This document shows positions 717 through 43,638 of a DNA stretch of 64,000 nucleotides, in pieces. The number at the start of each line of letters is the position of its first letter. The stretch's first letter is position 1. The translations under genes were made by a program, and so were the position numbers. The stretch comes from Candidatus Latescibacterota bacterium (GTDB lineage: Bacteria > Krumholzibacteriota > Krumholzibacteriia > WVZY01): contig CP070677.1 in the NCBI GenBank assembly GCA_020352495.1, forward strand, positions 2,577,501-2,641,500. The letters are read 5' to 3'. The notes under the pieces are model-generated. The model made no database searches. It saw nothing but the letters and a program-made list of their open reading frames with translations, and was not told the DNA's origin.

Positions 717-1946
717 CTAACTTGCGTTTTCGGAATCGGCTCTCAGCCGCGTTCTCACGACGACCTCCGAATGAAGCGTCCGGTGAACGGGGCACTTGTC
801 GGCGATCTCGAGAAGCCGCGCACGTTGATCGTTGTCGAGAGGACCTCCGACTTGGATTTCGCGCTCGATTACATCGATCTTTCCCACCTGCGTCTCGCAC
901 TGTTCGCAATCCGCCGCGTGGATCTTTTCGTGCGAGAGCCTTACGATGATCTCATGGAGCGGCCACTCCTTGCGGTCCGCATACATTCTCAACGTGATCG
1001 ATGTGCAAGCCCCCAAACCGGCGAGTAGATACTGGTACGGTGAACCGCCTTTGTCCGTCCCACCGACCGACAACGGTTCATCGGCCGTCATTTGGTGGAC
1101 ACCGGCCGCAATCTCCGTTCGGTATCTCTCCTGCTCGGTCCGGACGATCACCTCACCTTTCTCTCCACGATCCGCCCCGTCCGGGTAATCGACGTATTTG
1201 CGTCCCCAAGCAGCCACAACTTCGCCAACGTAACATGAGTCGTTTTCGTCGCCGAGAAGATGATCCGCCCGATCGAGCGAAACAAAGCTCTTTGGATGCC
1301 GGGCAGCGACAAAAATCTCCTGCGCGTTCTCGATCCCCACGATGTTGTCACTCGGTGAGTGAAAAATCAGCAGCGCCTTCCCAAGGTTTCCAATGTGTTC
1401 CTGCATCCTCGAGCGCTCGAGATCGTCAAGAAACTGTTTTTTGATCCGAAACGACCGGCCGGCGAGAACCACAACCGCCTCCCCCGACTTCTCGATCACA
1501 TCCGCCGCGTCGCGGAGCACCTTTTTTAGGTGACGCGGATCGCTCGGTGCGGCGATCGTTGCCACCGCCACCGCGGAGGGTATTCTGGAGGCGGCCTGGA
1601 GGATTGCCGCGCCTCCCAGTGAATGACCGACGAGTATTTTGGGTGCTTGGTGATGCGTCCCGAGGAAATTCGCCGCGGCGACGAGATCTTCCACGTTTGA
1701 CGAGAAGTTCGTGTCGGCGAAGTCGCCTCCGCTCTCCCCCAACCCCGTGAAATCAAACCGAAACACCGCGATTCCTCTCCCACACAATGCTCGGCTGATG
1801 TTTGTGACCGATTTGTAGTTCTTCGAACACGTGAAACAATGTGCAAAGAGCGCAAACGCCATGGGCTTTCCGGACAACGGGAGATCCAGTCTGGCGGAAA
1901 GCTTGTCTCCGGCGTTGTTCTCAAAAGTGATCCTATGGGTTATCAT
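717..1946 (-). CDS. bifunctional alpha/beta hydrolase / OsmC-Ohr family protein
   Basis: 409 aa. N-terminal GHSLGG nucleophile elbow with a hydrolase fold. C-terminal ~140 aa shows OsmC/Ohr-like two-Cys peroxiredoxin features (GGTDKGGSPYQYLLAGLGACTSITLRMYA). This is a known fusion architecture. Confidence 0.8.
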   Translation of the reverse strand: MITHRITFENNAGDKLSARLDLPLSGKPMAFALFAHCFTCSKNYKSVTNISRALCGRGIAVFRFDFTGLGESGGDFADTNFSSNVEDLVAAANFLGTHHQAPKILVGHSLGGAAILQAASRIPSAVAVATIAAPSDPRHLKKVLRDAADVIEKSGEAVVVLAGRSFRIKKQFLDDLERSRMQEHIGNLGKALLIFHSPSDNIVGIENAQEIFVAARHPKSFVSLDRADHLLGDENDSCYVGEVVAAWGRKYVDYPDGADRGEKGEVIVRTEQERYRTEIAAGVHQMTADEPLSVGGTDKGGSPYQYLLAGLGACTSITLRMYADRKEWPLHEIIVRLSHEKIHAADCEQCETQVGKIDVIEREIQVGGPLDNDQRARLLEIADKCPVHRTLHSEVVVRTRLRADSENAS

Positions 1947-2430
1947 GTCTTTTCCCCTGTGTTAATGTCCCGGTTCGAGTGTAGGATACCACACTCACCG
2001 AGAGACTGGACTTCCCATACCACGGCCGACATCGCCACGCACAAGGACCCATTCCTCTTGAACCAACCGAGGTAACGCCTTACGGACAAATAGGTTATGG
2101 ACAGGCACGTCGACCGGTTTCGCGCCAATTCACCACTTCCCCTTTTCCCCTGGATGCGTTATGATCAGGTACCTCGAACCGCTTTCTGCCCGTGAGGGCC
2201 TTGCGGAGAGTTCCCGTGTCCAGCCGACGGGATCCCATTTCCAAGAGGTAGTAAACAAGACAACTTACGCGCTGAACGAATCTATCGAATTATCAGGCCA
2301 AGGCCGTGTATATAGTCCTCAGAGGTTCTTTCCCGGGGAATAGGCACCTAAGTGTACTCGTAACAATCGGCCCCACCCCACCGTATACTAGAGAGCACGT
2401 TTTTTTTCGACGCAAAGAAAGGAGCTGGAT

Positions 2431-3762
2431 GTGAGCACTTTTACACGTTCGACAGTAAAACCCCTAAAGATCGCAAACATGAACACCCGCCACCGGACGC
2501 TGTGGGCGTTGGCCGTGTTCGTCACGGCGGCCATGGTACTGATCCAGTGTGCGTTGCCGACGCAGGCGGCCGACTGGAAGGGTAAGGAAACCACAAAAGA
2601 CGGTATCCGTTGTCTTGTCAGCCCCCGCGAACCAATGGAGCCCCGTATCACGTCCGAACTCGAGGAGCTTTGGCGGATCGGGGGGGACACGGACGACGAG
2701 GACGAGTTCTTTGGCGTCATTCTGCAAATCCTGACGGACGACCACGGGAACGTGTATCTTCTCGATTCGCAACTCAATCAAGTCAAGGTTTTCTCTCCCG
2801 ACGGTGAGTACGTCAGAGAGTTCGGACGCGAGGGCGAGGGTCCAGGCGAGTTCCGGTTCGCGTCGGATATGTTTTTCACCGCCGACGGAAACATCGGAGT
2901 CCTGCAGGCGGCCCCCGGCAAGATCATTCTCTTCACACCCGAGGGTGAGCCGGCCGGTGAACATCCGATTCCAACGCGTGAAGACGGTGGCATGGTGATC
3001 CTATCCAATGGATCTTACAGGGCGGGCAATCTCGTCTTGCTCGCCATGGCGCAGGCCTTCTCAGAGAACCGTTACGAACGAACCGATTACTTGGTTAGCG
3101 TCGATCCCGAAGGCGGCGAAAAAGCCCGTTACCATTCAAGGTCGCGCGTGCTCGATACCGCGAACCCCGTTTTGAGCGAAGGCGAGTGGACACCGTTTTC
3201 CGGCCGCTGGGCGATCGGCGCGGATGGACGCGTATACGTGTGCACGAGCCGCGATGACTACACGATCAAAACCTGGAACCGCGATGGCACACCCGACCGT
3301 ATCATTGAGCGCGAATACACTCACCGCAAAAGGACAGCCGAACAAAAGAAGGTTATCGACGACCTATTTGGAGTATTCGCCAACATGATTCCAAACGGGA
3401 CGTTCGAGACCTCGGATTACGACGGCGATATCGCGGCCATCTATGTTCGCGAGGACGGCAGCCTTTGGGTCCTCACGAGCGACGGGACGCGTGATCTCCC
3501 CGATGGGAGTCTGGGAGTTTTTGATATTTTCGATCAGGAGGGCCGTCTCCTTCGGCAGGTTGCATTGAACGGTGACGGAGATCCGGAAACCGATGGCTAC
3601 TATTTTTCCGGTGACCGTATGTATGTAGTAACGGACTGGCTGCAGGCGCTCATATCGCTCCAATCGGGTGAACAGTCGTTCCAGGTCGGGGACGAGGAGC
3701 CCGAGCCGATGAGCGTGATCTGCTACCAGCTTGCCGCCGATGTTCAGACGTCGCAAAAATAG
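2431..3762 (+). CDS. secreted NHL-like / 6-bladed beta-propeller repeat protein
   Basis: 443 aa. N-terminal signal peptide (TLWALAVFVTAAMVLIQCALPTQA). Repeated '...VYLLDSQLNQVKVFSPDGEYVREFGREGEGPGEF...' NHL-type blades. RBS aaaggag lies upstream. Confidence 0.6.
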   Translation: MSTFTRSTVKPLKIANMNTRHRTLWALAVFVTAAMVLIQCALPTQAADWKGKETTKDGIRCLVSPREPMEPRITSELEELWRIGGDTDDEDEFFGVILQILTDDHGNVYLLDSQLNQVKVFSPDGEYVREFGREGEGPGEFRFASDMFFTADGNIGVLQAAPGKIILFTPEGEPAGEHPIPTREDGGMVILSNGSYRAGNLVLLAMAQAFSENRYERTDYLVSVDPEGGEKARYHSRSRVLDTANPVLSEGEWTPFSGRWAIGADGRVYVCTSRDDYTIKTWNRDGTPDRIIEREYTHRKRTAEQKKVIDDLFGVFANMIPNGTFETSDYDGDIAAIYVREDGSLWVLTSDGTRDLPDGSLGVFDIFDQEGRLLRQVALNGDGDPETDGYYFSGDRMYVVTDWLQALISLQSGEQSFQVGDEEPEPMSVICYQLAADVQTSQK

Positions 3763-14274: not shown

Positions 14275-14823
14275 CTACTCTGCGTAGAGCGATTTCACCT
14301 TACCCCAGGTGGAATCCTCAGCCGGGACATCGCACTGACAGGATCCGTCAGCATTAATGATGCCCTCTCCCCCGGTCGCAAAGATCAAGTTGTTCACACA
14401 GTCCACAACCTCGATCTGACCCGAAGGAACGGCCGGATCGGGTAGGATTTGGTAGTAACAACACGAGCCGGTCAGACCCTGGCAGAAAAAGCTGATGTCC
14501 AGGACGTTGTTCGGGCTAGGGATACACGCGCCGAATCCGACGGCCACACCGGTCTGAGAGTTGCCGATGGTGACCGGGTAAAGCGCCGTATCGGACAGGT
14601 ATGTCCCGAGGAAACAAGCCGGCACCGGTGCCCAAAACTGACAGGCAGTCGCACCCGGCGAGTTCACATGAACCACATGATAGGTGCAAAGACCCGGAAC
14701 AAGATCCTGGAGATTGCAGTCGGTACCCATGGGATCGCCAAAGATGCCGATGCTACCCGCCTGGGCAAACACCACGCTCGCTGCGAAAAGCATTGCGACC
14801 GCGAGGTATACCACTTTCTTCAT
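14275..14823 (-). CDS. secreted Cys-rich hypothetical protein with C-terminal 'STWGKVKSLYAE' tag
   Basis: Strong RBS aaggagga before ATG. Signal peptide MKKVVYLAVAMLFAASVVFAQA. About 14 Cys. The C-terminal motif is shared with the 34962..35675 protein. Confidence 0.65.
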   Translation of the reverse strand: MKKVVYLAVAMLFAASVVFAQAGSIGIFGDPMGTDCNLQDLVPGLCTYHVVHVNSPGATACQFWAPVPACFLGTYLSDTALYPVTIGNSQTGVAVGFGACIPSPNNVLDISFFCQGLTGSCCYYQILPDPAVPSGQIEVVDCVNNLIFATGGEGIINADGSCQCDVPAEDSTWGKVKSLYAE

Positions 14824-16339: not shown

Positions 16340-17917
16340 TTGCAAAACCGTTTGACCAGGGTGGCAATCGGCCTCGTCCTCGTTGGTTTGTTGGAGTTCC
16401 TTCGTGTTGGGGCGGCGGGAACTCCAGCGAAGTCAGAACCGCCTCAGCTTTCCCCGACCGCCCCCAACGAGTCCCTTAGTCCCCGCTCCCCGAGTTCCCG
16501 GACCGACGCTCTCTTTGAAGAAAACGTGGCGTTTTGGGCACCCGATCCGAGCGGCACGACGGAAATCCTCTCGGCCGTCTGGGGTCAGAACGACGAGTTT
16601 GTCGTTGTCGGGTCCAACGGAACCATCCTCCACTATGACGGCACGCTATGGCAGCCGATGAACAGCGGCACGACAGTCGATCTCCAGGGTGTTTGGGGGC
16701 ATTCTTTGACGGATATCTTTGCCGTTGGCCCCGACGGCACAATCATTCGGCACAGCGGTTCCGCATGGCTCCAGATGCAGACACCCACCACCGAGTTTCT
16801 TCGCGGAGTCTGGGGCACCTCGCCGTCGGATGTATTCGTCACGGGCACGAGAGGTACCATCATCCACTATGACGGTATTCACTGGCAAAGCATGGAAAGT
16901 AACAATCCCAATCGCCTCTACGACATCTGGGGTAGTTCCAACACGGACATCTTTGTCGTCGGCCACCTGGCCACAGTCCTTCACTTCGACGGCTCGACCT
17001 GGACAACCATGGACAGCGGCGCGCGCACGACGCTGTGGGGCGTATGGGGCGACTCAACCGGTTACGTCTTTGCGGTCGGTGGCGGTGGTGTCATCGTTCG
17101 CTATGACGGGTCGGACTGGTCGCAGATGATCAGCGGAACTACGGAAACACTGCTCCGCGTATGGGGAACGTCCACAGACAACGTTTTCGCAGTGGGCGGC
17201 AATGGCACGATTCTGCAATATGACGGCTCCGCGTGGCGTGCGACCAACAGCGGAACGTCGCACACCCTCAAAGACGTCTACGGAACCTCCGAGACCACGA
17301 TCCTCGCTGTTGGCGAGAATGGAACAATCCTTCGTTACTTCGGCGATGACGTCCCCGTTTTTTTGCAGGACTTCCGCGTCAATGCCTTGCCCGACGCCGC
17401 GTCGATCGTCTGGCAAATAAGCGGCGACGCGCAGGTTCGAGGGTTCCGGATTCACAAAAGGTGGCCCGACGGCACGTTGTCGTCGATTCCTTCGCCAACC
17501 ACGCTGATTCACCCCACCCAACGTACCTATCTGGACGACAACCTCACGGTAGGAGGCGTTTATCATTATGCTCTCGCGATCCATGCACTCGACGGATTCG
17601 CGACGCGGTCACCGTGGATAGGCGTGGCTATACCTCTATACCCGTTGATCCTGCATCAAAATGCGCCAAACCCATTCAATCCTGAGACGAGGGTCGAGTT
17701 TTTTCTGCCGGTGCGCAGCTCTGTGAATTTGGCCGTTTTCGAGGTGAGCGGCAGACATGTCGTGACCCTCATCAATGAGGTCTTGCCGGCAGGCCATCAT
17801 TTCGTGGATTGGAATGGCCGAAACGCCACCGGCCATCCGGTGGCAACCGGCGTTTACATATGCCGTCTGCGGGCCGGAAAAAGCCAACTTTCGACAAAAA
17901 TGACCCTCGCGAAATGA
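16340..17917 (+). CDS. secreted beta-propeller repeat protein with T9SS C-terminal sorting domain (TIGR04183-like)
   Basis: The long ORF from 15872 overlaps the minus-strand YjbQ gene. A TTG at 16340 preceded by gggagg gives the signal peptide MQNRLTRVAIGLVLVGLLEFLRVGAAG (an ATG at 16229 is an alternative). About 8 tandem ~41-aa repeats 'VWGxSxxDVFAVGxxGTIxxYDGSxWxxMxSGT'. The C-terminus NAPNPFNPETRVEFFLPVRSSVNLAVFEVSGRHVVTLINEVLPAGHHFVDWNGRN...GVYICRLRAGKSQLSTKMTLAK is a canonical Por/T9SS CTD. Confidence 0.7.
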   Translation: MQNRLTRVAIGLVLVGLLEFLRVGAAGTPAKSEPPQLSPTAPNESLSPRSPSSRTDALFEENVAFWAPDPSGTTEILSAVWGQNDEFVVVGSNGTILHYDGTLWQPMNSGTTVDLQGVWGHSLTDIFAVGPDGTIIRHSGSAWLQMQTPTTEFLRGVWGTSPSDVFVTGTRGTIIHYDGIHWQSMESNNPNRLYDIWGSSNTDIFVVGHLATVLHFDGSTWTTMDSGARTTLWGVWGDSTGYVFAVGGGGVIVRYDGSDWSQMISGTTETLLRVWGTSTDNVFAVGGNGTILQYDGSAWRATNSGTSHTLKDVYGTSETTILAVGENGTILRYFGDDVPVFLQDFRVNALPDAASIVWQISGDAQVRGFRIHKRWPDGTLSSIPSPTTLIHPTQRTYLDDNLTVGGVYHYALAIHALDGFATRSPWIGVAIPLYPLILHQNAPNPFNPETRVEFFLPVRSSVNLAVFEVSGRHVVTLINEVLPAGHHFVDWNGRNATGHPVATGVYICRLRAGKSQLSTKMTLAK

Positions 17918-18940: not shown

Positions 18941-21900
18941 TTACTTGCAGGGCAAGAACCGAACGGCCGTTTCCATTTCCTCGAGCACCTGTTCGAGCGC
19001 CGACAACGCCTCGTCGATGTCCTGCCCCGTAGTTTTGTGCGACATCGAAAACCTCACCGAACAGTGAGCATCCTCTTCGGATCGTCCCATGGCGATCAAC
19101 ACATGTGTCGGTTTTGGCGATCCCGACTTGCACGCAGACCCCGACGAGATCGAGACTCCGTGCTGATCGAGCGCCACGACCAGCGATTCGCCTCGAAGTC
19201 CCGGGAGAGTCATATTGAGCGTGTTGGGAAGCCTCTTCTCACGATGTCCGTTGAGTATCGCGTCGGGGACGAGTCGTTTGACGCCCTCCTCGAGACGATC
19301 CCTCAACAGTCTCATTTCTCCGGATTTGTTGACGTTTCTTAGCGCAAGCACGGCGGCCTCTCCCATCCCGACGATCGCCGGCACGTTCTCCGTCCCCGCT
19401 CGCAATCCACCCTCCTGCATTCCCCCGTGGAGAAGCGGCTCCAGCTTGATACCCTTTCTCACGTACAGGGCGCCAACACCCTTTGGCCCGTGGAACTTGT
19501 GACCGGAGAGGGTGAGCATATCGACGCCAAGCTCTTCCACGTCGATCTTTATTTTTCCAGCTGCCTGCACGGCATCGGTGTGAAACAACACGCCCTTGGA
19601 GTGAGCGATCCGGCACAACTCCTCGATTGGGAGAATCGTTCCAACTTCGTTATTGGCCATCATGACCGACACGAGAACCGTTCGCTCATTGATCGCCGAC
19701 TCGAGCGTACTCGGATCCAAACAACCCTCTTGATCCACCTCGAGATAGGTCACCTCATGACCGTGTCGCTCCAAAAACCCGCACGTTCCCAACACAGCCG
19801 GATGTTCAACCCGGGTCGTAACAACGTGATTCAGCTGGCCCCGATGAGCGAACGCCACGCCCTTGACCGCCAGATTGTCCGCTTCCGATCCCCCACCGGT
19901 GAACATGATTCTGCGTGGACGCGCGTTTATTAGCTGACCCACCTGTCGCCGCGCCCGATCGATTGCCTCCCTGGCGTCGCGCCCGGCTCCGTGGATGCTC
20001 GATGGGTTCCCGTGTTTTGTCTCCAAATATGGCAGCATCGCTTGCCGAACCTCGTCGGCCAACTCGGTGGTTGCGTTGTTGTCGAGGTATATCCGTGTAG
20101 CAGATTTCTTCCGTTGCCGCTGTCTCCCAACCGGACGTGAGCCGCCTCCCACTTTCGAATGTTCAAATGTTTTCTCTTTCGCCGGTCTTTTCTTTTTGCG
20201 AACCTGCGCACCGCCGCCGAGCTCGTTCACTCTCACGACATCGCAAAGAAGCGCTTTGTACACGGGAAACCCCGTTATCTCGTCGTAGTTGGTGATGTCG
20301 GTGAGCTCGTTGACATTCCGCTCCCGCCACTCCCGGGGCCCAGCGGGCGCCCCTCCACCCATGTTGCATTCGACGGCACCCTCCGTGATATACTCCGTCA
20401 CACGGGCACGAAATTTGACAGCCCCTCGGGGTGTCCGTACCTCGACAAGATCACCGTCTTCGATACCTCGTGATTCGGCGTCAGCGACGTTGATCTCCAC
20501 AAAGGGTTCGGGATTGTCCTTTACAAGACCATCGATCCCGTGATGCTGCGATCGAAAATCGGTATGCAGCCGCGCGCCGGAGTTGAAAACCAGCGGGAAA
20601 TCCGCAGCCAACTCCCTGTCGGCAACTGGTCCCTCGGTGGGCTCGGTGTATTTTGGCAACGGCTCGTATCCATACTCATCGAGAATCATCGAGTGGATTT
20701 CGAACTTGCCCGTTGGCGTATCGAATCCCGGTTTTCCGTCTTTTCGAAGTCTCCCCTTCTCCCATTTCTTGAACTCCATCATTGGTGTGTCGATCTTCAC
20801 CCATCCCCCCGCGTTTTCTACATCCTCGAGCGTATACCCCGAGCCTTCGAGCGCCGTTCGAATCATCTCTTCTTCGGACTGCGGGTAGAGGTGACCGTAC
20901 CCCAACCGGTCGGCCAGCCCCGCCATGATCAAGTAGTCGTTCCGCGCCTCCCCGACCGGCTCAATCAACTTCTCCCTCAAACGAAATAGCGGACCATATA
21001 CCATATATGAATCGATCTCGAACATTGTCGTCGCTGGAAGTACCACATCAGCGTAGCTGGCGTCCGCCGTGAGCTGGCGGTCTATGCAGACAAGATATTC
21101 GAGCCTGGAGAGCGTCTCACGCCAGAGAGGTGTCTGTGGCCATGACGTCATCAGAGACGCCCCGTGAACGATCAAGCCGCGGATGCGATACGGGTCGCTC
21201 TTGAGGACCGAGTCCACGAGTCCACTTGCGTGTGACTCGCCACGATAGTCGCTGTAAACCGGAAATCGTTGACGCGCGACGGCCAGGTCGATGTTTGGGT
21301 TCTTTTGATTACAGTTCCGGTTTATCGGGAAATGGGTACGGAGCATCGCAAGCCCGATCCCCCCGGGAACGTCCAACTGACCGGCGAGCGCAAAGAGTGT
21401 GAGAACAGCACGTATCGCTTGAACGCCGGTGTTGGAATACTCCAACCCCGTATACATAACCGGACAAGCCCCGGTGGCGTTGCAGATTCGGCGAGCCAAC
21501 TCACGCGTCGTGTCGGCCGGCACACCGGTGATCGATTCCACGACCTCGGGTGAGAAGTGTTGAACGTAACTCTTGAGTTCGTCGAAACCGTGACACCAGT
21601 TTTCGGCAAAATCTTCGTCATGGAGGTCCTCATCGATCATGACTTCGATGATCCCAAGAGCGAGCGCACCGTCGGTGCCCGGTCGGATCGGAACCCACTG
21701 CGCCCCCGTTCTTCGTGTCGTCTCACTCATTCGAGGATCGATGACAATGACGTCGGCGCTTCGGTTTGCCGCCGCTTCCAGACGGTGCATGTCGAGAGGT
21801 GGCGAGTCGGTGGCTGGGTTCGCGCCCCACACGACGAGCGTTTCCGCGTTCTCGATGTCTGTGAACATGTCGACGAGCATTCTTCCCATCGTCACATGCG

Positions 21901-22450
21901 GTGCGATCATGGCAAACGACACGTAACAGAGCGCACCGACACCCATCGTGTTGGGTGATCCAAAGGGGAACAGAACGTTTGACGCCGATGATACGGCCAC
22001 GCCCTTCGGTTGATACATGTCGCACAGCGACAGTTCGAATGCCCCTCGCCCCGTATAAATCGCCACCGCCTCGGGCCCTGATTCTTTTTTTATGTTCAAC
22101 AGCCGACGCGAAATTTCGTCGTACGCCTCATCCCATGTGAATCGTTCGAACTCGCGGGACGGTTTTGGACCGACACGCCTCAGGGGGTGTCTCAGTCGAT
22201 GCGTGGAATAGACAATCTCCGGGGCGTGTTCGCCACGTCTGCAAATCATCCCCAACGGATGACCCTTGTCCGCGCGGATGTCGATCATCTCCCCATCCCG
22301 GATGGCCACTTCAACCCAACACCCGGCCGGACAAATTCCGCAGATCCCCTTCTTCCATTCGGGGCTAACGGTTCTGTAATTGGCTTTCTTCGACACCTCG
22401 AATCGCCTCTCCATCTGGCCCGATCGGAGATGTTTCCGTCTCACAGACAC
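18941..22450 (-). CDS. molybdopterin (bis-MGD) oxidoreductase fused in frame to a class V aminotransferase / cysteine desulfurase (NifS/IscS-like)
   Basis: 1169 aa single ORF. N-terminal ~770 aa: 4Fe-4S Cys motif GICGICPAGCWVEV...ICRRG, MopB domain, then a molybdopterin-dinucleotide-binding domain (...EINVADAESRGIEDGDLVEVRTPRGAVKFRARVTE...). Basic linker VRKKKRPAKEK...RQRQRKK. C-terminal ~390 aa: RIYLDNNATTE...SGHKFHGPKGVGALYVRKG (PLP-Lys)...SSGSACKSG (active-site Cys loop). No TAT signal, so cytoplasmic. Confidence 0.8.
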   Translation of the reverse strand: MSVRRKHLRSGQMERRFEVSKKANYRTVSPEWKKGICGICPAGCWVEVAIRDGEMIDIRADKGHPLGMICRRGEHAPEIVYSTHRLRHPLRRVGPKPSREFERFTWDEAYDEISRRLLNIKKESGPEAVAIYTGRGAFELSLCDMYQPKGVAVSSASNVLFPFGSPNTMGVGALCYVSFAMIAPHVTMGRMLVDMFTDIENAETLVVWGANPATDSPPLDMHRLEAAANRSADVIVIDPRMSETTRRTGAQWVPIRPGTDGALALGIIEVMIDEDLHDEDFAENWCHGFDELKSYVQHFSPEVVESITGVPADTTRELARRICNATGACPVMYTGLEYSNTGVQAIRAVLTLFALAGQLDVPGGIGLAMLRTHFPINRNCNQKNPNIDLAVARQRFPVYSDYRGESHASGLVDSVLKSDPYRIRGLIVHGASLMTSWPQTPLWRETLSRLEYLVCIDRQLTADASYADVVLPATTMFEIDSYMVYGPLFRLREKLIEPVGEARNDYLIMAGLADRLGYGHLYPQSEEEMIRTALEGSGYTLEDVENAGGWVKIDTPMMEFKKWEKGRLRKDGKPGFDTPTGKFEIHSMILDEYGYEPLPKYTEPTEGPVADRELAADFPLVFNSGARLHTDFRSQHHGIDGLVKDNPEPFVEINVADAESRGIEDGDLVEVRTPRGAVKFRARVTEYITEGAVECNMGGGAPAGPREWRERNVNELTDITNYDEITGFPVYKALLCDVVRVNELGGGAQVRKKKRPAKEKTFEHSKVGGGSRPVGRQRQRKKSATRIYLDNNATTELADEVRQAMLPYLETKHGNPSSIHGAGRDAREAIDRARRQVGQLINARPRRIMFTGGGSEADNLAVKGVAFAHRGQLNHVVTTRVEHPAVLGTCGFLERHGHEVTYLEVDQEGCLDPSTLESAINERTVLVSVMMANNEVGTILPIEELCRIAHSKGVLFHTDAVQAAGKIKIDVEELGVDMLTLSGHKFHGPKGVGALYVRKGIKLEPLLHGGMQEGGLRAGTENVPAIVGMGEAAVLALRNVNKSGEMRLLRDRLEEGVKRLVPDAILNGHREKRLPNTLNMTLPGLRGESLVVALDQHGVSISSGSACKSGSPKPTHVLIAMGRSEEDAHCSVRFSMSHKTTGQDIDEALSALEQVLEEMETAVRFLPCK

Positions 22451-29227: not shown

Positions 29228-32200
29228 CTACCGGTCTTCGTCTCTAATCCCCATCCCGCTACGGTCGGGATACGGCGGCCGCTTTGGCTTCTTGTACGGG
29301 TGTCGTTTGAGCTCGTCCAGCATGTGATCGATGGCCGCATCGAGTTGAACGTCCTTGCCGCCAACCATTTTTGCCGGATCATCTATGACTTCGATATCGG
29401 GATCGACACCGTGCCCCTCGATCCCCCACGTGCCATCCTTTTCGTAAAACGCGAACGTCGGGGCGCTTGTATAGCCGCCATCGATCAATCGCGGATTGCC
29501 GCTGAGACCCACGAGACCTCCCCAGGTGCGCGTACCGATTAGTTTGCCCAATCCCGCCTCTCTGAACCAGAACGGGAAGTAATCACCACCGGACCCAGCC
29601 AGCCCGTTGATCAACATACACTTCGGCCCTTGATGAGCGTCGGGAGGCCACGGGAAGGAGTCGTCCCGATCGCGAAGCGCCCAGTAGTTGGCTATCGGCC
29701 GATTGAGGAGCTCGATGAAACGTGTGGGAATCTGGCCACCCCCGTTCCACCGTTCGTCGATGATCAATGCGTCGACGTCGACTTGTCCAAAATACTGGCG
29801 AACGAGCTCGTTCTGACCCCAGATGCTCGTGTTTGGGACATAGATATATCCAACCCTTTCATCGGTCTTCTCCGCAACATAGGCGCGGTTCTTCTCGACC
29901 CAGGCCCGGTAGCGAAGCATGTACTGCGAGCCTTCGAGTTTTACGAGTACATGACGCGCCTTGTCACTCATGGTCGGTTCTTCACTTACGGTCAGCGTTA
30001 CCGTCCGATTTGCCAACCCGACAAAGGCGGCCCACGGGTCCTTCGCCGTATCCACGGGGACGCCGTTTACCGCGAGGAGGTAATCGCCTTCTTTTATATC
30101 GATACCGGGCTGGCTCAGGGGCCCCCTGCCGTCGACGTCCCACGGGGCAGCCTCGAGAATCCTCGCCACGCGGTATGCACCGTTTTCTAGTTTGAAATCA
30201 CACCCGGGCATACCAACGCTCACACTCGGAGCCTCCTCCACATCACCGCCAAAGTAGTATGCATGTCCCACGTTGAGCTCGGAGATCATCTCGCGGATCA
30301 CATAGCTAACGTCTTCCCGCGAGGCGCAGTCTTTTAGCATTGGGCCGTAGTGTTCACGCACCGCCTCCCAATCGACGCCGTGCATATTGGGGTCGTAGAA
30401 GTAATCTCTCTGTATGCGCCATGCGTCGTTAAAGATCTGATTCCATTCCTCGCGTGGGTCTATTTGGCTCATCATACCCGACGTGGACACCATATCTTTG
30501 AGCTTTTGATCGGGCTTGGCGTCGACGATCGCCATGCCACGCTCCCAAGTCACGACGAGAAGCTTCTTACCGTCCGCAGACATCGCATAACCCCTGACGC
30601 CCTTCACAACGGTCTTTTCCCTTTCGTCCTCCTTCTCCTCATCCAGATCGAGGAGGTGAATCGACGTCTTCTCGTCCATCCCGCGAAGCGGGTTTCTCTC
30701 GTATATGAGCTTTCCCTCGTCGTTCACGTTCAACTGCGAGAAATTGCCACGTTCGACGGGGAGCAGAACGGCCCGGCGCTCGAAGTCTTCGAGATCGATC
30801 TTCACGGGCTCCGGTTTATCCTCGTCCTTGGAGTCCTTCTCTTCTTTTTCCCCCTCTTCCTTCTCTTTGTCTGCTTCGTCTTTCTTTTCCTCGTCGTCCT
30901 TTTCGTCCGCTTTTTCGTCGTCCTCCTTGTCCCACGTTTCGTCATCGCTCTTTGGTGCGAGCGGCGACGCGATTTCCTTTGTCAATGGAACGGCATAGAG
31001 CCGATCTGTATGAGCGTAGATCCAAGTCGTTCCGACATCTTCGTACATCGGTGACGAAAAATCCCGAAGGCTGGCAAAATAGAGATACTTCCCCTCGCGG
31101 TCGAACGTCGGCCAGGTATCATGGAACATCCCGCTCGTGACCTTCTGTTTCTTTTCGTCCTCGATATCGTAGAGCCAAATGGCGTTGGGTGTGATCATCC
31201 CCTCCCTGAGACTGTAGGCCATCCATTTCGAATCGCTCGACCAACTCACACGGGTTGCCCTTCCCCAACCCTTGTATTGATCCACCTTTTTTGTCTTTCC
31301 GCTTTCGACATCGGTGAGGTGAAGCTTCCCGGCTTTGTCCCAGAAACAGATCCACTTCGAGTCCGGCGACCAGGTCGGCAGGTAGAGGTAGCCGGCCTTG
31401 AGACTCGTGAGCCGCCGCGTCTCCCCCCGACCATCCGACTGCATGACATAGAGCTCGTACTCGCCGGTTTCATCCGAGAAATACGCGATCCATCGCCCAT
31501 CGGGACTCCAGGAAGGATCCCTTTCGGCATAGCCGCTCGTGCGGTGAAGATTGATCGGTGAACCCTTCTTTGCCGGGAGCGTCCAGATGTCTCCTCTCGC
31601 TCCCACGACGACACGTTTACCCGTGGATGATATGTCACGCCTGAATATTAGATCGCTCGTGTCGATCGCCTGGACACGGATCTTTGGCCGGTCTCCGGGA
31701 ATGGTTATCGAGATGCTTCGCGATTTCTCGCTTGCCAGATCGAGGAGATAGATGTCCGATGCGTGTTGGAAAACGATCTCCCCTTGTCCCTCCGATCCCG
31801 GACCAATCGAAGGCCACTTGACGTCGTAGTCCCGATACGTTGTAACCTGACTATTCTCACCGGTCTTCACATCGTGAACCCAGATGTTCAAACGATGTCC
31901 CTTACCGGCATCCGAGAGGTAATAGATCTTATCCCCATTCCACATGGGTTGGGTATCGGTTCCTTCCCAGTCTGTGATTTTCTTCGATTCGTGTGTTTTT
32001 AGGTTGAAGAGCCAGATATCTGTCGCCATCCCACCCCGGTACCTTTTCCACGTCCGGTGATCTCTGCTGTGTGGCGTGTAGGCAAGCCACTCGCCGTCTT
32101 CGCTCACCGCTCCGTTGGCCCCGTAAGGCACGGGCAGCTTCTCCGGCAGACCACCTTCGGCCGAGACGGTGAACATCTCTTGGGCCCTGGGGTAGTCGTA

Positions 32201-32600
32201 CATCCCATAGGCCCAGAACATCAACCGGCCGTCCGGTGTCCAATCGGTTATCACTTCGTTTGACGGATGGTGTGTGACACGAAATGGTGTGCCACCCGAT
32301 GTGGGTACCGTGTATAGATCGAGGTCGCCGTCGTAGTTCCCCATAAATGCAATCGTCTCCCCGTCAGGGCTGAACCTCGGGTACGCCTCCGCACCGGGCG
32401 GACCCGCCAAAGGCGTCGCCAAACCACCTTCTTTGGGTACAAGCCAGAGATCGTTGGCATAAAGAAACGCGATGTGCGTCTCGCTCACATCCGGGTACCT
32501 CAGCATTCCCGCGTGTGGCTCGACTGCAACTGCCTCGGCCGCGAACCCAAACAAAAGACCCAACAACGGTATCGCGGCGCAGAATCTGGAAACGGCCATC
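29228..32600 (-). CDS. tricorn protease homolog (tandem beta-propellers + PDZ + C-terminal S41 peptidase)
   Basis: Start MAVSRF with RBS aggagg and a signal peptide. TolB-like WD40 propeller repeats (PDGETIAFMGNYDGDLDLY...). Acidic D/E/K linker. The C-terminal PDZ and S41 region aligns with the tricorn/Tsp family. Confidence 0.8.
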
Positions 32601-32802
32601 TCGACTCCTCCTTCTGATGACGTTGGATGAACGTTCTCCGTAGACGTGGGGGGATCAATCATTACATACGAAACGGGGAGGATAAAGTTCTACTTTTCGT
32701 TCCACCCCCGGAGTGGGTATTCGGTCTTTTGACTCCGGTCGACTGACCGTATTATACTCGACTCGTCTCGGGGAAAAGCCTCGGCGGAAACGGAGGATCT
32801 AG

Positions 32803-34848
32803 ATGCGTCCCACGGTAACTCGCGAAGAGCTCTCCAGACTGGGAATCGACGCCACGATGTCCCGCGAGATCTTGGATAAGCTCAATGCGATCCCTCGGGA
32901 CACACCTCCGGCAGCGGTCTGGCGCGAGGTCTCTCGATCGGTGCTCTCAGCGGATATTCCGTTCGTTGTTCACAGTCTTCTTTTTGAGACGATATTCGCG
33001 AGCTGGGACCACTCGCACGGTCCCCCACCCGTGTGGATCCCGTCCGAGCAAGAAATCAGGTCCTCGAACGTCGCCGCCTTTTGCAAAAAGGCGAACATAT
33101 CGAGAGTGAGCGATCTCCACGCCTGGTCGGCGGAGAACCGGAGCGCGTTCTGGGAGACTGTCGTTGATATTCTCGGTATACGTTTCCGGAAATCCCCTAA
33201 GGCGATCGTCGATCTTGCCGATGGCATCGAAATGCCACGTTGGCTCGTGGGCGCACGCCTCAACATCGCGGAGAGCTGTTTCCAGGCGCCCGGTGACGCA
33301 CTGGCCGTGGTGTATCAGCCCGAGGGTGGCGCGATACAAAGAGCGACCTACGCTCAGCTCGACCGGCTCTCGAACCGGGTTGCGAATTCCCTGCTCGAGC
33401 TCGGTATCAAACACGGCGATCGAATCGCCATTGCCATGCCGATGACGTTGGAAGCGGTGGCGGCATATCTTGGGATCGTCAAAGCGGGCTTTGCCGTTGT
33501 GTCCATCGCGGACAGCTTTGCCGCCGAAGAGATGGCAACTCGTCTCCGAATTGCCGATACGAAGGCCGTTGTGACGCAGGATGTCGTCCTTCGCGCTGGC
33601 AAAACGCTTCCCATGTATGAAAAGGTGGTGGACGCCGGAGCAAAAACAGCCATCGTCGTTTTGACTCGAGATTCAACCGGTATCGCGCTTCGTGAGAACG
33701 ACATCGGTTGGGATTCATTTCTTGTCGAGAACGACGTTTTTGACGCGATCCCATGCGATCCCGACGAGGTGATCAACATTCTCTTCTCGTCGGGCACAAC
33801 CGGTGACCCCAAGGCCATTCCCTGGACCCAGACAACACCAATCAAATGTGCGATGGACGGCTTTCTGCATCATGACATCACACCGGGAGAAGTCGTCGTG
33901 TGGCCGACGAACCTTGGGTGGATGATGGGCCCGTGGCTGATTTTCGCAACCTTGGTGAATCGCGGAACGATGGCCCTTTATTATGGAGCCGCGGTGACCC
34001 GGGAGTTTTGCGAGTTTGTCCAGAACGTGGGAGTGAAGATGCTCGGTGTCGTACCGAGCCTGGTCAAAGCATGGAGGAAGGCGGACACCGTTCGCGGTCT
34101 CGACTGGTCATCGATCAAAGCATTCAGCTCCACCGGTGAAGTTTCGAATCCCGATGACTACCTCTATCTCATGTCGCTGGCCGGGTACCGCCCGGTCATC
34201 GAGTACTGCGGCGGTACCGAGATCGGAGGCGGTTACATCTCGGGGACCATCGTCCAACCCGCGTCGCCCTCAACATTCACGACGCCTTCGTTTGGACTCG
34301 ACTTTTGTATTCTCGACGAGAGCGGGAAGCCGGCGCGGAGCGGCGAACTCTTTATCATTCCCCCATCGATTGGGCTTTCCAACACGCTACTCAACCGCGA
34401 CCACCACGAGGTTTATTACGCCGGTACCCCCCGCGGTCCAAACGGCGAGTTGCTAAGAAGACATGGCGACGAGACAGAGGCGCTCCCCGGAGGGTACTAC
34501 AGAGGGCGCGGCCGCGCCGATGATACGATGAACCTGGGCGGCATCAAGGTGAGTTCATCAGAGATCGAGAGGACGTTGAATTCGGTCGACGGACTATTCG
34601 AAACCGCCGCAATTGCTGTCGATCCACCCGGAGGCGGACCCAGTCGTCTCGTGATCTATCTTGTGCCGGAACCCGGCGCCGACCTCAAACCCGAGACCGT
34701 GAAAAAAGACATGCAGCGTGCCATCGCCACGGGACTAAACCCGCTGTTCAAGATCCACGATGTCCGTGTGGTCGACACGCTTCCGCGGACCGCCTCCAAC
34801 AAAGTCATGAGACGTGCTCTACGGGAAGGTTACGCGAAGAACGAATAA
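32803..34848 (+). CDS. AMP-dependent synthetase/ligase (acyl-/acetoacetyl-CoA synthetase-like)
   Basis: AMP-binding motif LFSSGTTGDPKAI. C-terminal YRGRGRADDTMNLGGIKVSSSEIE motif. RBS ggagga. Confidence 0.85.
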   Translation: MRPTVTREELSRLGIDATMSREILDKLNAIPRDTPPAAVWREVSRSVLSADIPFVVHSLLFETIFASWDHSHGPPPVWIPSEQEIRSSNVAAFCKKANISRVSDLHAWSAENRSAFWETVVDILGIRFRKSPKAIVDLADGIEMPRWLVGARLNIAESCFQAPGDALAVVYQPEGGAIQRATYAQLDRLSNRVANSLLELGIKHGDRIAIAMPMTLEAVAAYLGIVKAGFAVVSIADSFAAEEMATRLRIADTKAVVTQDVVLRAGKTLPMYEKVVDAGAKTAIVVLTRDSTGIALRENDIGWDSFLVENDVFDAIPCDPDEVINILFSSGTTGDPKAIPWTQTTPIKCAMDGFLHHDITPGEVVVWPTNLGWMMGPWLIFATLVNRGTMALYYGAAVTREFCEFVQNVGVKMLGVVPSLVKAWRKADTVRGLDWSSIKAFSSTGEVSNPDDYLYLMSLAGYRPVIEYCGGTEIGGGYISGTIVQPASPSTFTTPSFGLDFCILDESGKPARSGELFIIPPSIGLSNTLLNRDHHEVYYAGTPRGPNGELLRRHGDETEALPGGYYRGRGRADDTMNLGGIKVSSSEIERTLNSVDGLFETAAIAVDPPGGGPSRLVIYLVPEPGADLKPETVKKDMQRAIATGLNPLFKIHDVRVVDTLPRTASNKVMRRALREGYAKNE

Positions 34849-34961: not shown

Positions 34962-35675
34962 CTATTCGGAATAGATCGCCTTTATGGCCCCCCAGGAACT
35001 CTCCTTAGTCGGCACCGTCGTGTCATGTGAGAACGCCGTCTTACACTCGTTCCCGTCGCGGTGGAGATTGTAGTTTTCGTCGGAGAAGGCGTAGATTCTC
35101 ACGCCATAGCAGATCTCCCACACGATGTGGTGGGTCACCTGATCCGAGTAGTTGTTGCCGTGCTCCGTCGGTGTCGAGACGACGAGATCACCGATCGGAT
35201 AGTACCATCCCAAACCCGCGTCGTACAAAATGGGATTCCCATCGACCCAGATATTGGGTACACACCACTCCGGCTCGAATTGATCGAACACGAGTAGTAT
35301 GTTGACATACGTCGTCGGCTCGTCGCTAAAACCGTCAACGATCAAATTGAAGTCCGTGCCGATCGCATAGTACCCCTGGTTGTCTTCGTCCAACACAAAC
35401 CCCGTGAGACCCGGAGCCTGATAGACCTCCCAGGCAATCTCGTGGGTGATGGCGTCGATCAACACCTCTCCGCCTCGATCGTACATCGGATCATAGAGCG
35501 AATCTCCCGGTCCGACCGTGTAGTACTCGCTCGACTCGTAGTGATACTCGCACGGACCTTCCGGATAAACGATGAGACAGGGATCGGGGGTTGCGTGACC
35601 GGCCGCAGGAAAGAGAGCTACACTCAAAAACACGAAACCTAAGCCACAAAGCGCTGCCCTTAGCAGATTTCGCAT
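34962..35675 (-). CDS. secreted hypothetical protein with C-terminal 'SSWGAIKAIYSE' tag
   Basis: Signal peptide MRNLLRAALCGLGFVFLSVALFPAAGHA. Aromatic and Cys-containing. The C-terminus matches the tag of the 14275..14823 protein. Confidence 0.6.
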   Translation of the reverse strand: MRNLLRAALCGLGFVFLSVALFPAAGHATPDPCLIVYPEGPCEYHYESSEYYTVGPGDSLYDPMYDRGGEVLIDAITHEIAWEVYQAPGLTGFVLDEDNQGYYAIGTDFNLIVDGFSDEPTTYVNILLVFDQFEPEWCVPNIWVDGNPILYDAGLGWYYPIGDLVVSTPTEHGNNYSDQVTHHIVWEICYGVRIYAFSDENYNLHRDGNECKTAFSHDTTVPTKESSWGAIKAIYSE

Positions 35676-41346: not shown

Positions 41347-42282
41347 GTGGCTTCTGCGGCCCTTTTGAGAAGAATCGGGTGTGCAGCCCTATTTCTCTTC
41401 CTGGCGTCACCTGTGTCGGCGCAGCTTGAGGACCAGTTATCATCATACACAGGTCGGAATGCCTCTGGTTATCTCGAGCCCTTGGTGGATGCGTTCGCCG
41501 CAGATCTAAACGCCGGGCTCTACCATTCTGCGCACATTTCAAGGGGGGGGCTTCAGGCAAGTATAGAGATCCTGTTCATGTCCGTGTTTTTCACGGACGA
41601 AGACAGAACGTTTACGGCCACAACCGAGGGTGGTTTTCAACCGCCCCAACAAACGTATGCTCCGACGGTCGTCGGAGCCAAGAAAGCCGTATACGTCGAC
41701 GGCGTTGCCGGGACGAAGTTTGCGTTTCCAGGAGGATTCGATCTCAATTCGTTTTCTTTTGCCGTGCCGCAGCTTCGTGTGGGCTCTCTTTACGGAACTG
41801 AAGCGCTCATCCGGTTCGGACTGTATTACACCGGAAACGCGGACGTCGAGACCCCGATGCTTTATGGGTTTGGTCTTCGACACAGCGTTTCACAGTATAT
41901 ACGACAGCACGTGAGCGATCGCTTCCCCGTCCGTTTGGCTGTCGGGGCGTTCTGGCAGCGTTTTTCGATGGGGGAAAACGAAAGGGGTGATGATTTACTA
42001 GTAGCTGACGCGTTATCCGTGGGACTCCACATGAGTAAGCGATTTACGAGATTGGAGCCTTACGCGGGTGTATCCTACGAGACCTTCTCAACCGAAGTGT
42101 CATACCTGGGAGAATCGCCCGATGATGAAATCAATCTTACGCTCGAGTCAGAGGACCATGTCCGTCTCACACTCGGGTTATCATACAACATCGCTTTCGT
42201 GGTCGCGCACGGGGAGTACAACATTGGTGGCCAGAACGCTTTCGCATTGGGGCTGGCCTTGCAACATCGTCCGTCAGAATAG
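41347..42282 (+). CDS. secreted putative outer-membrane beta-barrel protein
   Basis: GTG start with RBS gggagag. Signal peptide AALFLFLASPVSAQ. Alternating amphipathic beta-strand pattern. Ends with an aromatic-rich terminal strand. Confidence 0.5.
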   Translation: MASAALLRRIGCAALFLFLASPVSAQLEDQLSSYTGRNASGYLEPLVDAFAADLNAGLYHSAHISRGGLQASIEILFMSVFFTDEDRTFTATTEGGFQPPQQTYAPTVVGAKKAVYVDGVAGTKFAFPGGFDLNSFSFAVPQLRVGSLYGTEALIRFGLYYTGNADVETPMLYGFGLRHSVSQYIRQHVSDRFPVRLAVGAFWQRFSMGENERGDDLLVADALSVGLHMSKRFTRLEPYAGVSYETFSTEVSYLGESPDDEINLTLESEDHVRLTLGLSYNIAFVVAHGEYNIGGQNAFALGLALQHRPSE

Positions 42283-42294
42283 GAGTGTGACAGT

Positions 42295-42915
42295 ATGAGG
42301 GTCGCAAAAATAGTCATGTTGCCAGTCGTTTGCATGCTCATTTTCGCAAGCGGCTGCGTTTATGACGAGCTGGCAAGTGAGGTTGTCGTCACTGAGAAGG
42401 TTGTTGTTCAATTCAAGGAGCACCGGGTGAGTCCGGACATCAATAGTGCGGTGGTGTGCGATCGTTTTCGGCAGCGGCTGCTTGGAATTCTCGATGATCA
42501 TGGTGCCACGCTCGACGATATCGTGAGCATCACGATGGTGAGCGGCCAATACAAAGTCGCCAAGCCCGCGAAGGATAAGTCCATCGACTGGACGGTCGCG
42601 GGTGACGTCACCGTCGCGCGTCAGGATGACCCGAGCGGTCCCGTCACCGAGGGTCCGGAAACGTTTGTGAACTTTACCACTCAGCCGCTACAACCGGCCA
42701 AGAGCACACCGATCTATGCGGATCTGAATTCAGCCGGTGTGACAGTGATCAACAACGCGCTGGAGGATCTTCGCAACGGTGGGGATCCCCGTCTTGTCCT
42801 CAACATGGGGAGTGACAATATCACACCCGCTCCGAGCCCATCGAACCCGCTCGATTTTAGTTGGCTCGCGATGGTGACGTTCCAGGTCGTCATTGACATG
42901 GACAAGACAGAATAG
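42295..42915 (+). CDS. lipoprotein, paralog A of tandem pair
   Basis: Lipobox IFASGC. About 50% identical to the next gene (shared CVYDELASEVVVTEK..., GPVTEGPETFVNFT, IYADLNS.GV, DPRL, FSW...TFQVVI). Confidence 0.65.
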   Translation: MRVAKIVMLPVVCMLIFASGCVYDELASEVVVTEKVVVQFKEHRVSPDINSAVVCDRFRQRLLGILDDHGATLDDIVSITMVSGQYKVAKPAKDKSIDWTVAGDVTVARQDDPSGPVTEGPETFVNFTTQPLQPAKSTPIYADLNSAGVTVINNALEDLRNGGDPRLVLNMGSDNITPAPSPSNPLDFSWLAMVTFQVVIDMDKTE

Positions 42916-43014: not shown

Positions 43015-43638
43015 ATGAAGACACATGTCATGCGACTTGTCGTTCTTCCGGTCTTCTGCCTGCTCACTCTCGCCGGGGGTTGTGTATACGACGACTTAAC
43101 GAGCGAGATGGTGGTCACCGAAAAGATCTGTGTAACCCTTGACGAGTACCGCGAAAGCGGGACCCTCGGGAGTGCAGTCGTTTGTGACCAGATTGCCGAT
43201 CGCGTCTACAAGCTGCTCGATAAACACAATTCCAAGGTAAAGGATATCAAGAGCATCGGCGTGATCAGCGGAACTTATCGGGCGGCCCGGCCGTCGCAGG
43301 CCGACCACGATTGGACGATTACATCCGAAGTCACGATAAAGAGGCAGGACAACCCGGCCGGACCGGTCACCGATGGCCCTGAGACGTTTGTCAATTTGAC
43401 GAGCCAATCGCTTCGCGCGGCGCAGGGCGGGCCCATTTACGCCGATCTAAACTCCGACGGCGTCGGCCTCATTGCGAGAGCGTTGGGCGATTTGTTGCTC
43501 GGTGAGGATCCTCGTCTCATCGTCACGATGGAAGGGGGCACGATCGATCCGGAACCCACGCCGGCGGATCCGCTGTCGTTTAGCTGGCGTGTCTGCGTGA
43601 CGTTTCAGGTGGTCATTGAGAAGCACCTGAACAAATAA
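43015..43638 (+). CDS. lipoprotein, paralog B of tandem pair
   Basis: Lipobox LTLAGGC. Colinear homology with the 42295..42915 product. Confidence 0.65.
   Translation: MKTHVMRLVVLPVFCLLTLAGGCVYDDLTSEMVVTEKICVTLDEYRESGTLGSAVVCDQIADRVYKLLDKHNSKVKDIKSIGVISGTYRAARPSQADHDWTITSEVTIKRQDNPAGPVTDGPETFVNLTSQSLRAAQGGPIYADLNSDGVGLIARALGDLLLGEDPRLIVTMEGGTIDPEPTPADPLSFSWRVCVTFQVVIEKHLNK

Follow-up and report, generated by a model that had tools for sequence, protein, structure and literature searches.

Two otherwise dissimilar signal-peptide proteins, encoded in a 64,000-nt stretch of DNA from a Candidatus Latescibacterota MAG (the whole stretch analysed, referred to here as the window), end in the same tail of about 17 residues, which recurs on many exported proteins of diverse kinds from three phyla. 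It forms an autonomous, transferable module carried by both Sec-exported proteins and lipoproteins in the Eisenbacteria, Latescibacterota and Krumholzibacteriota. Judged by its sequence, it looks like an undescribed address or docking tag that matches none of the curated families searched. C-terminal signals such as LPXTG, PEP-CTERM, GlyGly-CTERM and the T9SS CTD define bacterial surface proteins, and each of them led to dedicated machinery.

The features of the two proteins are collected in Table 1. In a protein search, the family-1 protein was 100% identical to the hypothetical protein JSW58_10865 of the Candidatus Latescibacterota MAG (P0001) and the family-2 protein was 100% identical to the hypothetical protein JSW58_10925 (P0121), both encoded on a contig of 4.3 Mb. 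Both have signal-peptide-like N-termini (MKKVVYLAVAMLFAASVVFA/QAG in the family-1 protein and MRNLLRAALCGLGFVFLSVALFPAAGHA/TPD in the family-2 protein), and the family alignment indicates that this N-terminus is conserved throughout family 1. As read from the ORF translations, the family-1 protein ends in CQCDVPAEDSTWGKVKSLYAE and the family-2 protein in HDTTVPTKESSWGAIKAIYSE, each followed directly by the stop codon.

Table 1. Features of the window considered in this work and the T9SS comparator, in window coordinates
Feature	Coordinates	Strand	Description
Family-1 gene	14275..14823	(-)	182 aa, 11 Cys; signal peptide, cohesin-like beta-sandwich, linker and tail
Signal peptide, family 1	14761..14823	(-)	Residues 1-21, ending VFA/QAG; AlphaFold2 helix 2-21
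Beta-sandwich body, family 1	14356..14754	(-)	Residues 24-156 (AlphaFold2 strands)
Tail copy 1, VPAEDSTWGKVKSLYAE	14278..14328	(-)	Residues 166-182; Pro/acidic/Thr linker, then predicted two-turn helix W173-Y180
Family-2 gene	34962..35675	(-)	237 aa; signal peptide, beta-sandwich unrelated to family 1, disordered linker and tail
Tail copy 2, VPTKESSWGAIKAIYSE	34965..35015	(-)	Residues 221-237; predicted helix 228-236
T9SS CTD comparator, not part of the tag	16340..17917	(+)	Repeat (propeller-like) protein

Similarity between the two window proteins is confined to this end. BLASTP aligned only the last 22 residues (E 1e-4), and when a 70-sequence family-1 alignment was compared with an 80-sequence family-2 alignment using hhalign, the last 18 columns alone aligned, with a probability of 95.8% (E 7e-9). 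A first-pass annotation of this DNA had proposed that two dissimilar signal-peptide proteins have nearly identical final 12 residues; the dissimilarity of the bodies and the reality of the shared tail are both borne out by these comparisons, while its true extent is larger, about 17 residues. A six-frame search of the 64 kb window with the regular expression W[GSA].[IVLM][KR]..[YF] found two places only, which correspond to the two ORFs, and in both the match lies 2 residues upstream of the stop codon. The DNA pattern WSNTGGGGNNNNRTNAARNNNNTNTWY likewise matched twice, against 0.00 matches expected from 100 dinucleotide-preserving shuffles. Only ~16/27 bases, as counted by eye, are identical between the two tail DNA stretches, so the tails are not a DNA repeat. 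Chance and local duplication were rejected on these two observations together with the hundreds of tails found elsewhere.

To define the module, the two family alignments were read together, giving the consensus [VI]-P-[VTA]-[EQ]-x-[ST]-[TS]-W-G-x-[IV]-K-x-[LIM]-[YF]-x(0-5). We found 126 homologues of family 1, which has several paralogues per genome and is present in Krumholzibacteria too, and 419 homologues of family 2; the tail lies at the extreme C-terminus in 118 of the 120 listed family-1 members and in 119 of the 120 listed family-2 members (~99%). Across these 118 + 119 family members and 129 genomic tails, the W and the K are invariant and the G is nearly invariant. With the W numbered 0, the conserved motif positions are 0, 1, 3, 4, 6 and 7, and positions 2 and 5 vary freely. 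The motif is followed by 0-7 residues, mostly polar and variable in both number and type, and most tails terminate in R, E, D, N, Q or K. Third codon positions vary freely where P, T and G are conserved (entropy 1.3-1.8 bits), which indicates selection at the peptide level; on the same ground, an element of DNA or RNA placed at gene 3′ ends was ruled out.

The distribution of the tail was assessed with a tail-only profile of 17 positions, blind to location within the protein, which was searched against 1.84 billion cluster representatives. This search yielded 135 representative proteins at E<=1e-3, the top ranks being enriched in multi-copy proteins since scores add, and in 129 of the 134 profile matches retrieved the motif lies no more than 5 residues from the C-terminus. 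In a word-indexed set of 5.8 billion proteins the tail profile matched 8 short fragments only. Genomes were scanned with a DNA pattern encoding P-x4-T-W-G-x-[IV]-K-x-x-[YF]. The scan of GTDB species genomes identified at least 119 stretches with the pattern. IMG/VR gave 15 matches, of which 10 end 1-2 residues ahead of a stop, and a comparison of the tail proteins on IMG/VR contigs with PHROGs produced a single weak match. Among the matches listed, the pattern falls within 8 aa of the stop in 41 of 43 cases in Eisenbacteria-labelled MAGs, 8 of 8 in Krumholzibacteriota, 5 of 5 in Latescibacterota and 54 of 55 in unclassified MAGs (108/111 for these groups together), and in 2 of 18 in all other labelled phyla, where the remaining 16 are internal. 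The two terminal exceptions in other phyla, again among the matches listed, are one ORF of a Fibrobacteraceae-labelled MAG and one boundary artefact. Apart from these two, terminal tails among the matches listed occur in no labelled group other than Eisenbacteria, Latescibacterota and Krumholzibacteriota, besides the unclassified MAGs; the most frequent Eisenbacteria ending among them is LYR directly before the stop. We know of no cultured members of the carrier phyla.

The bodies to which the tail is attached are varied. When 148 bodies with a tail, each 120 aa or longer and drawn from the profile matches and the listed genome-scan matches, were clustered by BLAST, 48 clusters resulted, the largest of which (58 of the 148 bodies) is the family-1 cohesin-like superfamily. 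Pfam domains on the other tailed bodies include the SGL/NHL propeller, cupredoxin, right-handed beta-helix and InhA-like MAM domains, as well as ThuA, the lamin-tail domain (LTD), CHRD and PKD. Among homologous bodies of the CHRD and NHL types, some end in the tail and others in a FlgD_ig-type T9SS CTD. A signal-peptide-like N-terminus is present in 54/70 (77%) of the tail ORFs, compared with 91/510 (18%) of the other ORFs at the same loci (Fisher p = 5e-23, with signal peptides called by a rough heuristic). The tail is therefore neither limited to two proteins by a local duplication, with 135 profile matches and at least 119 genome stretches, nor equally frequent at internal positions or in cytoplasmic proteins: it is overwhelmingly terminal and enriched behind signal peptides.

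One tailed family consists of lipoproteins, and 7/7 of its recognised members have two or more acidic residues among the five that follow the lipidated Cys. In Bacteroidetes, the lipoprotein surface-export signal is SDDDD or K-(D/E)2 (PMC5080379), and by analogy we infer that this surface-export rule may be valid in the carrier phyla as well. That signal, LES (PMC5080379), determines whether a lipoprotein is exposed at the surface and resembles the tail in being a short linear signal of the FCB group, and the acidic stretch on the tailed lipoproteins is LES-like; however, LES is an acidic N-terminal stretch that only lipoproteins have, whereas the tail is C-terminal, predicted to be helical and found mainly on non-lipoproteins.

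We compared the tail with curated families and with known signals. Neither window protein had a match in Pfam or NCBIfam at E<=1, ten further tail bearers searched against Pfam and NCBIfam gave no tail match at E<=10, and in at least 12 tail bearers the tail is covered by no curated HMM, even at E<=10. Among PDB chains none has the tail sequence, and a literature search for the core strings of the tail found no description. The earlier remark that the tag was not recognised as a described sorting signal is consistent with the curated families and literature searched. A genome paper on Latescibacteria (PMC4454575) makes no mention of cohesin, dockerin or C-terminal signals.

The type A CTD of the T9SS (TIGR04183 / PF18962) is, like the tail, a modular C-terminal element found on many unrelated Sec-exported proteins of the FCB group. 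The CTD, however, is an Ig-like beta-sandwich of ~70-100 aa, whereas the tail comprises 17 residues, predicted to form a linker and a helix of 8-9 residues. T9SS CTD HMMs match no tail tested, while the protein encoded at 16340..17917, which served as a positive control, matches TIGR04183 over residues 443-521 with 24.8 bits (cut-off 23) and FlgD_ig with E 4.6e-5. This match shows that the same genome, to judge by homology, also uses a classical T9SS CTD. Furthermore, the tail, unlike the CTD, occurs in tandem, internal or N-terminal copies and has no linked PorU/PorV-type machinery. The first-pass annotation had anticipated two of these points, the presence of a T9SS CTD on the 16340..17917 protein and the far smaller size of the tag (17-18 residues against ~70-100 aa).

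Similarly, the LPXTG, PEP-CTERM, GlyGly-CTERM and MYXO-CTERM signals share with the tail a short conserved motif near the C-terminus, restriction to particular lineages and many paralogues per genome. In contrast to the sortase, exosortase and rhombosortase signals, the tail has neither a transmembrane helix nor a basic cluster after the motif, and none of the NCBIfam CTERM models matches it. With 0-7 residues after the motif and no CTERM model match, the earlier argument that a tag lacking a hydrophobic helix and a basic tail is not of the sortase or exosortase type holds. A candidate functional analogy is the dockerin-cohesin system, in which a small C-terminal module on many enzymes or adhesins docks non-covalently to a common scaffold, and the commonest tail carrier has a weak fold resemblance to cohesin. 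Dockerins span ~60-70 aa and contain two Ca-binding loop-helix repeats. The tail, by contrast, is 17 aa long, is without Ca loops and has no match to Pfam Dockerin (PF00404), and its hosts, unlike those of dockerin-cohesin pairs, are FCB-group bacteria, presumed to be Gram-negative. The peroxisomal PTS1 -SKL, the ER -KDEL and the bacterial tags read by PDZ domains are also short C-terminal address peptides, a likeness by analogy only. Signals of the PTS1, KDEL and PDZ type require an exact free C-terminus, whereas the tail has variable residues after the motif and occurs in non-terminal copies.

Three further candidates were rejected. An outer-membrane-protein beta-signal, in which a terminal aromatic residue closes an amphipathic beta-strand of a barrel, does not fit a last residue that is usually polar or charged, bodies that are soluble beta-sandwiches and a conservation period of ~3.5. 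Substrates with a type 1 secretion signal, which lies within their final ~50 aa and often behind RTX repeats, lack a Sec signal peptide, but 77% of the tail ORFs and both window proteins have signal-peptide-like N-termini. A Trp-Lys crosslinked RiPP of the streptococcal WGK type was dismissed as the carriers are Sec-exported proteins of ~200 aa rather than small cytoplasmic precursors.

Structural models of the two window proteins were obtained using AlphaFold2, with a mean pLDDT of 90.5 for family 1 and 83.9 for family 2. In the family-1 model, ten-residue blocks over residues ~21-160 average a pLDDT of 93-98 and the last three blocks average 67, 64 and 53; the tail is modelled as a helix at residues 173-180. 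The family-2 body is a different beta-sandwich (residues 33-197), followed by a linker (residues 201-230) with block averages of 59, 46 and 57 and a tail modelled as a helix at residues 228-236. Both models place the tail apart from the body, as a short helix after a flexible, low-confidence linker, and the helix itself is of low confidence (pLDDT 53-72). Its detachment and low confidence in two unrelated models rule out the tail as a piece of the folded body. Conservation along the motif has a period of ~3.5 rather than 2, which fits a helix. Based on the models and this periodicity, the tail is probably helical, and the beta-strand-like tag suggested by the first-pass annotation was ruled out. 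On a helical wheel, W(0), I/V(+3), K(+4), L(+6) and Y(+7) would fall within one arc of ~160 degrees, and the two free positions and the conserved Gly would occupy the opposite face of the helix. When the family-1 body was compared with the PDB using Foldseek, cohesin modules were matched (E about 1e-4, TM 0.45-0.6), a weak match of a kind that beta-sandwiches give promiscuously, and Pfam Cohesin did not match this body. Foldseek gave no convincing fold match for the family-2 body.

Although more than 95% of the copies are C-terminal, the exceptions are informative. Two to four copies stand in tandem near the C-terminus of some proteins, in certain cases ~20 aa apart (P0241, P0242, P0251, P0276 and P0298). 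Others pair a copy that directly follows the signal peptide with a C-terminal one (P0262, P0267, P0254 and P0351), and in a further group a copy closes each of two tandem modules of ~190 aa (P0244, P0246, P0247, P0250 and P0252). Two adjacent secreted proteins of a Patescibacteria-labelled MAG (L124), one of them an M23 peptidase, have an N-terminal motif only, as does a C39-like peptidase of a Gammaproteobacteria-labelled MAG (L071). These internal, N-terminal and tandem copies indicate that a free C-terminus is not required.

We also assessed the neighbourhood of the tail genes. When all ORFs of the 119 listed loci and the window were clustered, the recurrent neighbours belonged to common paralogue families only, such as sigma-54 activators, Ser/Thr kinases and ABC ATPases. 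No gene resembling sorting machinery was seen within the 64 kb window, which encodes RND efflux components, molybdopterin enzymes, Moa genes, a DUF4440 protein and an AMP-binding enzyme. Two genes away from the family-2 gene, at 29228..32662, is a Tricorn-like PD40+PDZ+S41 protease whose N-terminus has a hydrophobic segment; the order family 2, AMP-binding, Tricorn-like is syntenic in two other loci (L137 and L138) and was seen for family 2 only. Two more loci that clustered with the Tricorn-like protease hold PD40-type repeats only. A conserved neighbouring 'sortase' was ruled out for these loci, given that the recurrent neighbours are common paralogue families and that the Tricorn-like cluster reflects PD40 repeats.

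Taken together, the reading that we prefer, which we hold tentatively as quite possible while stopping short of calling it probable, is that the tail is a modular helical docking peptide, bound non-covalently by a common, putative partner in the envelope. In such a scheme the flexible linker, rich in Pro, acidic residues and Thr, would keep a two-turn amphipathic helix off the folded body, and the conserved face of this helix (W, I/V, K, L, Y) would serve as a short linear docking epitope. After Sec export, a common partner in the envelope or at the cell surface would bind the tail non-covalently, so that many unrelated proteins might be retained or assembled at one site, in the manner of dockerins or of signals read by a receptor. 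That W, G and K are so strictly kept from phylum to phylum points to a protein as the partner, and we infer that the tail binds such a protein, would act at the surface and would stay uncleaved. The non-terminal and multi-copy cases favour a docking epitope over a signal recognised a single time and then cut off. Weighing against docking are the lack of a partner beside the tail genes, the low confidence of the helix, the >95% C-terminal location and the exchange with the T9SS CTD.

A second reading stays in play because nearly all copies are C-terminal and homologous bodies swap the tail for a T9SS CTD. Here the tail would be an export or sorting signal, a miniature analogue of the T9SS CTD that an outer-membrane translocon or an enzyme would recognise in the periplasm, with delivery to the surface or the medium and perhaps removal of the tail. 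Its position at the extreme C-terminus, a range of cargo as is typical for T9SS substrates, CHRD and NHL homologues that have one or the other ending, occurrence in FCB-group phyla only (among the matches listed) and a strict residue conservation of the sort that recognition by an enzyme or translocon would predict are all consistent with this idea. However, internal, N-terminal and tandem copies fit poorly with one-time reading followed by removal, the stretch after the motif varies in length, the listed loci and the window hold no candidate machinery near the tail genes, and classical T9SS CTD cargo is already present in the same genome; we consider a sorting signal rather unlikely. More doubtful in our view is that the tail anchors its protein directly, in the interface of a membrane leaflet or on LPS or a surface polysaccharide, without a protein receptor, which would liken it to the C-terminal amphipathic helices of some penicillin-binding proteins (PBP5-like). 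The predicted amphipathic helix, with W, I/V, L and Y on one face and an invariant Lys, would suit such a role, many Eisenbacteria tails have two or three basic residues (for example WGRIKALYR) and tandem copies would gain avidity; yet a helix of 8-9 residues is short for stable anchoring, the conservation of W, G and K across phyla exceeds the usual needs of lipid binding, and at positions +2 and +5 acidic or neutral residues are frequent, the linker is acidic and the Latescibacterota tail has a net charge of about 0.

The two remaining alternatives concern particular partners. As a particular form of docking, the cohesin-like family-1 body itself would have the tail as its ligand, so that head-to-tail chains of family-1 proteins would recruit other tailed proteins into a cellulosome-like surface network. 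This proposal draws on the cohesin-like fold of the body, on the rank of the family-1 superfamily as the largest carrier and on the presence of a tail on nearly every family-1 member, with several paralogues per genome; but the fold match is weak and not seconded by Pfam, dockerin features are absent and the tail is undocked from its own body in the monomer model, and we regard self-assembly as improbable. The Tricorn-like protease near the family-2 gene and its synteny raise the notion that the tail serves in quality control or processing, where a periplasmic, C-terminal-processing protease (S41/PDZ type) would recognise it during maturation or turnover. This synteny, however, extends to family 2 only and to related Latescibacterota only, and the two other protease-clustered loci contain nothing but PD40-type repeats; moreover, PDZ and S41 proteases need a defined free C-terminus, whereas the ends of the tails vary and internal copies exist. 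A processing tag therefore seems to us very improbable.

Returning to a docking peptide or a related address, we speculate more broadly that the tail is the address label of an undescribed sorting or surface-assembly pathway, specific to the Eisenbacteria, Latescibacterota and Krumholzibacteriota, which would be read after Sec export by envelope machinery or by family-1 bodies, for which the tail would act as a minimal 'dockerin'. This broader proposal we rate as possible, although we would not call it likely; if true, the sortase, exosortase and T9SS signals would be joined by a new class of signals for sorting or docking at bacterial C-termini. With the tail profile, hundreds of proteins now called 'hypothetical' could be annotated as cargo of the envelope or surface, and the profile offers a handle for the discovery of partners via phylogenetic profiling. 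A peptide of 17 residues is also directly usable in binding and fusion experiments, and if it does prove to be a docking peptide, it would constitute a very small natural affinity tag. As a further point of likeness to dockerins, a DNDGD..DPDC motif, which we read as possibly Ca-binding, is sometimes present ahead of the tail.

The tail terminates proteins of very different build. Among the cluster representatives found by the tail-profile search and the loci from DNA-pattern scans is a lipoprotein family (members in the table), exemplified by P0244 and L118_2797_3519 and without a Pfam match, in which a module of ~190 residues (…VLxNLExAYNxR…LLDxxFxFxFS…WxIVxWxD) always carries the tail at its end. 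Some members are tandemly duplicated, and each module then has its own tail. Acidic residues follow the lipidated Cys, as in the Bacteroidetes LES. Loci L065 (Eisenbacteria CAWHYG010000015.1) and L072 encode very large tail proteins, up to 1428 aa long, in which many Cys-rich 'GACC…C…TC.PNPCP' repeats alternate with a module of ~200 residues. Three genes for such large Cys-rich proteins lie close together on one contig.

Positions and members of the features discussed
Feature	Position or members	Strand	Remark
Large tail ORFs of L065	3212..7498; 1010..3142	-	
Synteny block in the window	29228..32662; 32803..34848; 34962..35675	-; +; -	
Paralogous ~206-aa ORFs	42295..42915; 43015..43638	+	adjoining; directly after the DUF6588 gene
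1169-aa fusion ORF	18941..22450	-	molybdopterin oxidoreductase + class-V aminotransferase (cysteine-desulfurase-like) domain
Lipoprotein family	P0244, P0246, P0247, P0250, P0252, P0242, P0276, L118_2797_3519		
IMG/VR loci with terminal tails	L003, L004, L007, L009-L015		

In several unrelated fragments (P0310, P0356, P0365 and L038) an Asp-rich 'DNDGD..D.DPDC' stretch, possibly a Ca-binding motif of the thrombospondin or dockerin-loop type, immediately precedes the tail; the L038 ORF ends in …LYDSADPDCETVPVEPSTWGRVKQFYKR. Two other proteins appear unrelated to the tag despite matching the tail profile: P0245, a pentapeptide-repeat protein in which the unit 'LDKTWGSVKELFGQGE' occurs internally three times at a spacing of 81 aa, and P0321 (692 aa), which has five 'TKTWGEIKSAF' units at a spacing of 40 aa and was judged by eye to be tape-measure-like.

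We also found the motif solely near the N-terminus, ~60 aa in and downstream of a signal peptide, in a Gammaproteobacteria-labelled MAG (L071) and in two adjoining paralogous ORFs of a Patescibacteria-labelled MAG (L124, JBBTRH010000024.1). Both paralogues read ...KPA[IV]RSTWGAIKALYR..., and one has a Peptidase_M23 body; the copy on a Peptidase_C39-like protein is SPVVPSTWGKIKAMYF. These N-terminal copies may stem from mis-binned contigs, or else the motif may be used by further phyla. On IMG/VR viral contigs, 10 of 15 DNA-pattern matches were true terminal tails (…TWGxVKxLYR*), and only one of these proteins (L015:12449-12952) weakly matched a PHROG 'virion structural protein' (E 4.6e-4). The contigs may be phages of the carrier phyla (Eisenbacteria, Latescibacterota and Krumholzibacteriota) or may be misclassified host DNA.

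Both in the window and at loci L137 and L138, the family-2 gene, which encodes a tailed beta-sandwich protein, is syntenic with genes for an AMP-binding/ACAS-like enzyme and a Tricorn-like PD40+PDZ+Peptidase_S41 protease with a hydrophobic segment at its N-terminus. At L137 and L138 two further genes adjoin it, one for a DUF6588 protein and the other of 209 aa. Their presumed counterparts in the window lie ~6 kb away: the DUF6588 gene at 41347..42282 and a pair of ~206-aa paralogues. These paralogues had no Pfam match; their N-termini are lipoprotein-like (…AGGCVYDD and …ASGCVYDE).

Elsewhere in the window, the T9SS-CTD protein 16340..17917(+) has a body of ~8 repeats ('…GT(I/V)(L/I)HYDGxxWxxMxSGT…L.GVWG…') that looks like a beta-propeller; beyond the CTD, the protein matches no Pfam family with confidence. 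The molybdopterin oxidoreductase part of the 1169-aa fusion ORF comprises Fe4S4, Molybdopterin and Molydop_binding domains, and its fusion to a class-V aminotransferase is, to our knowledge, unusual.
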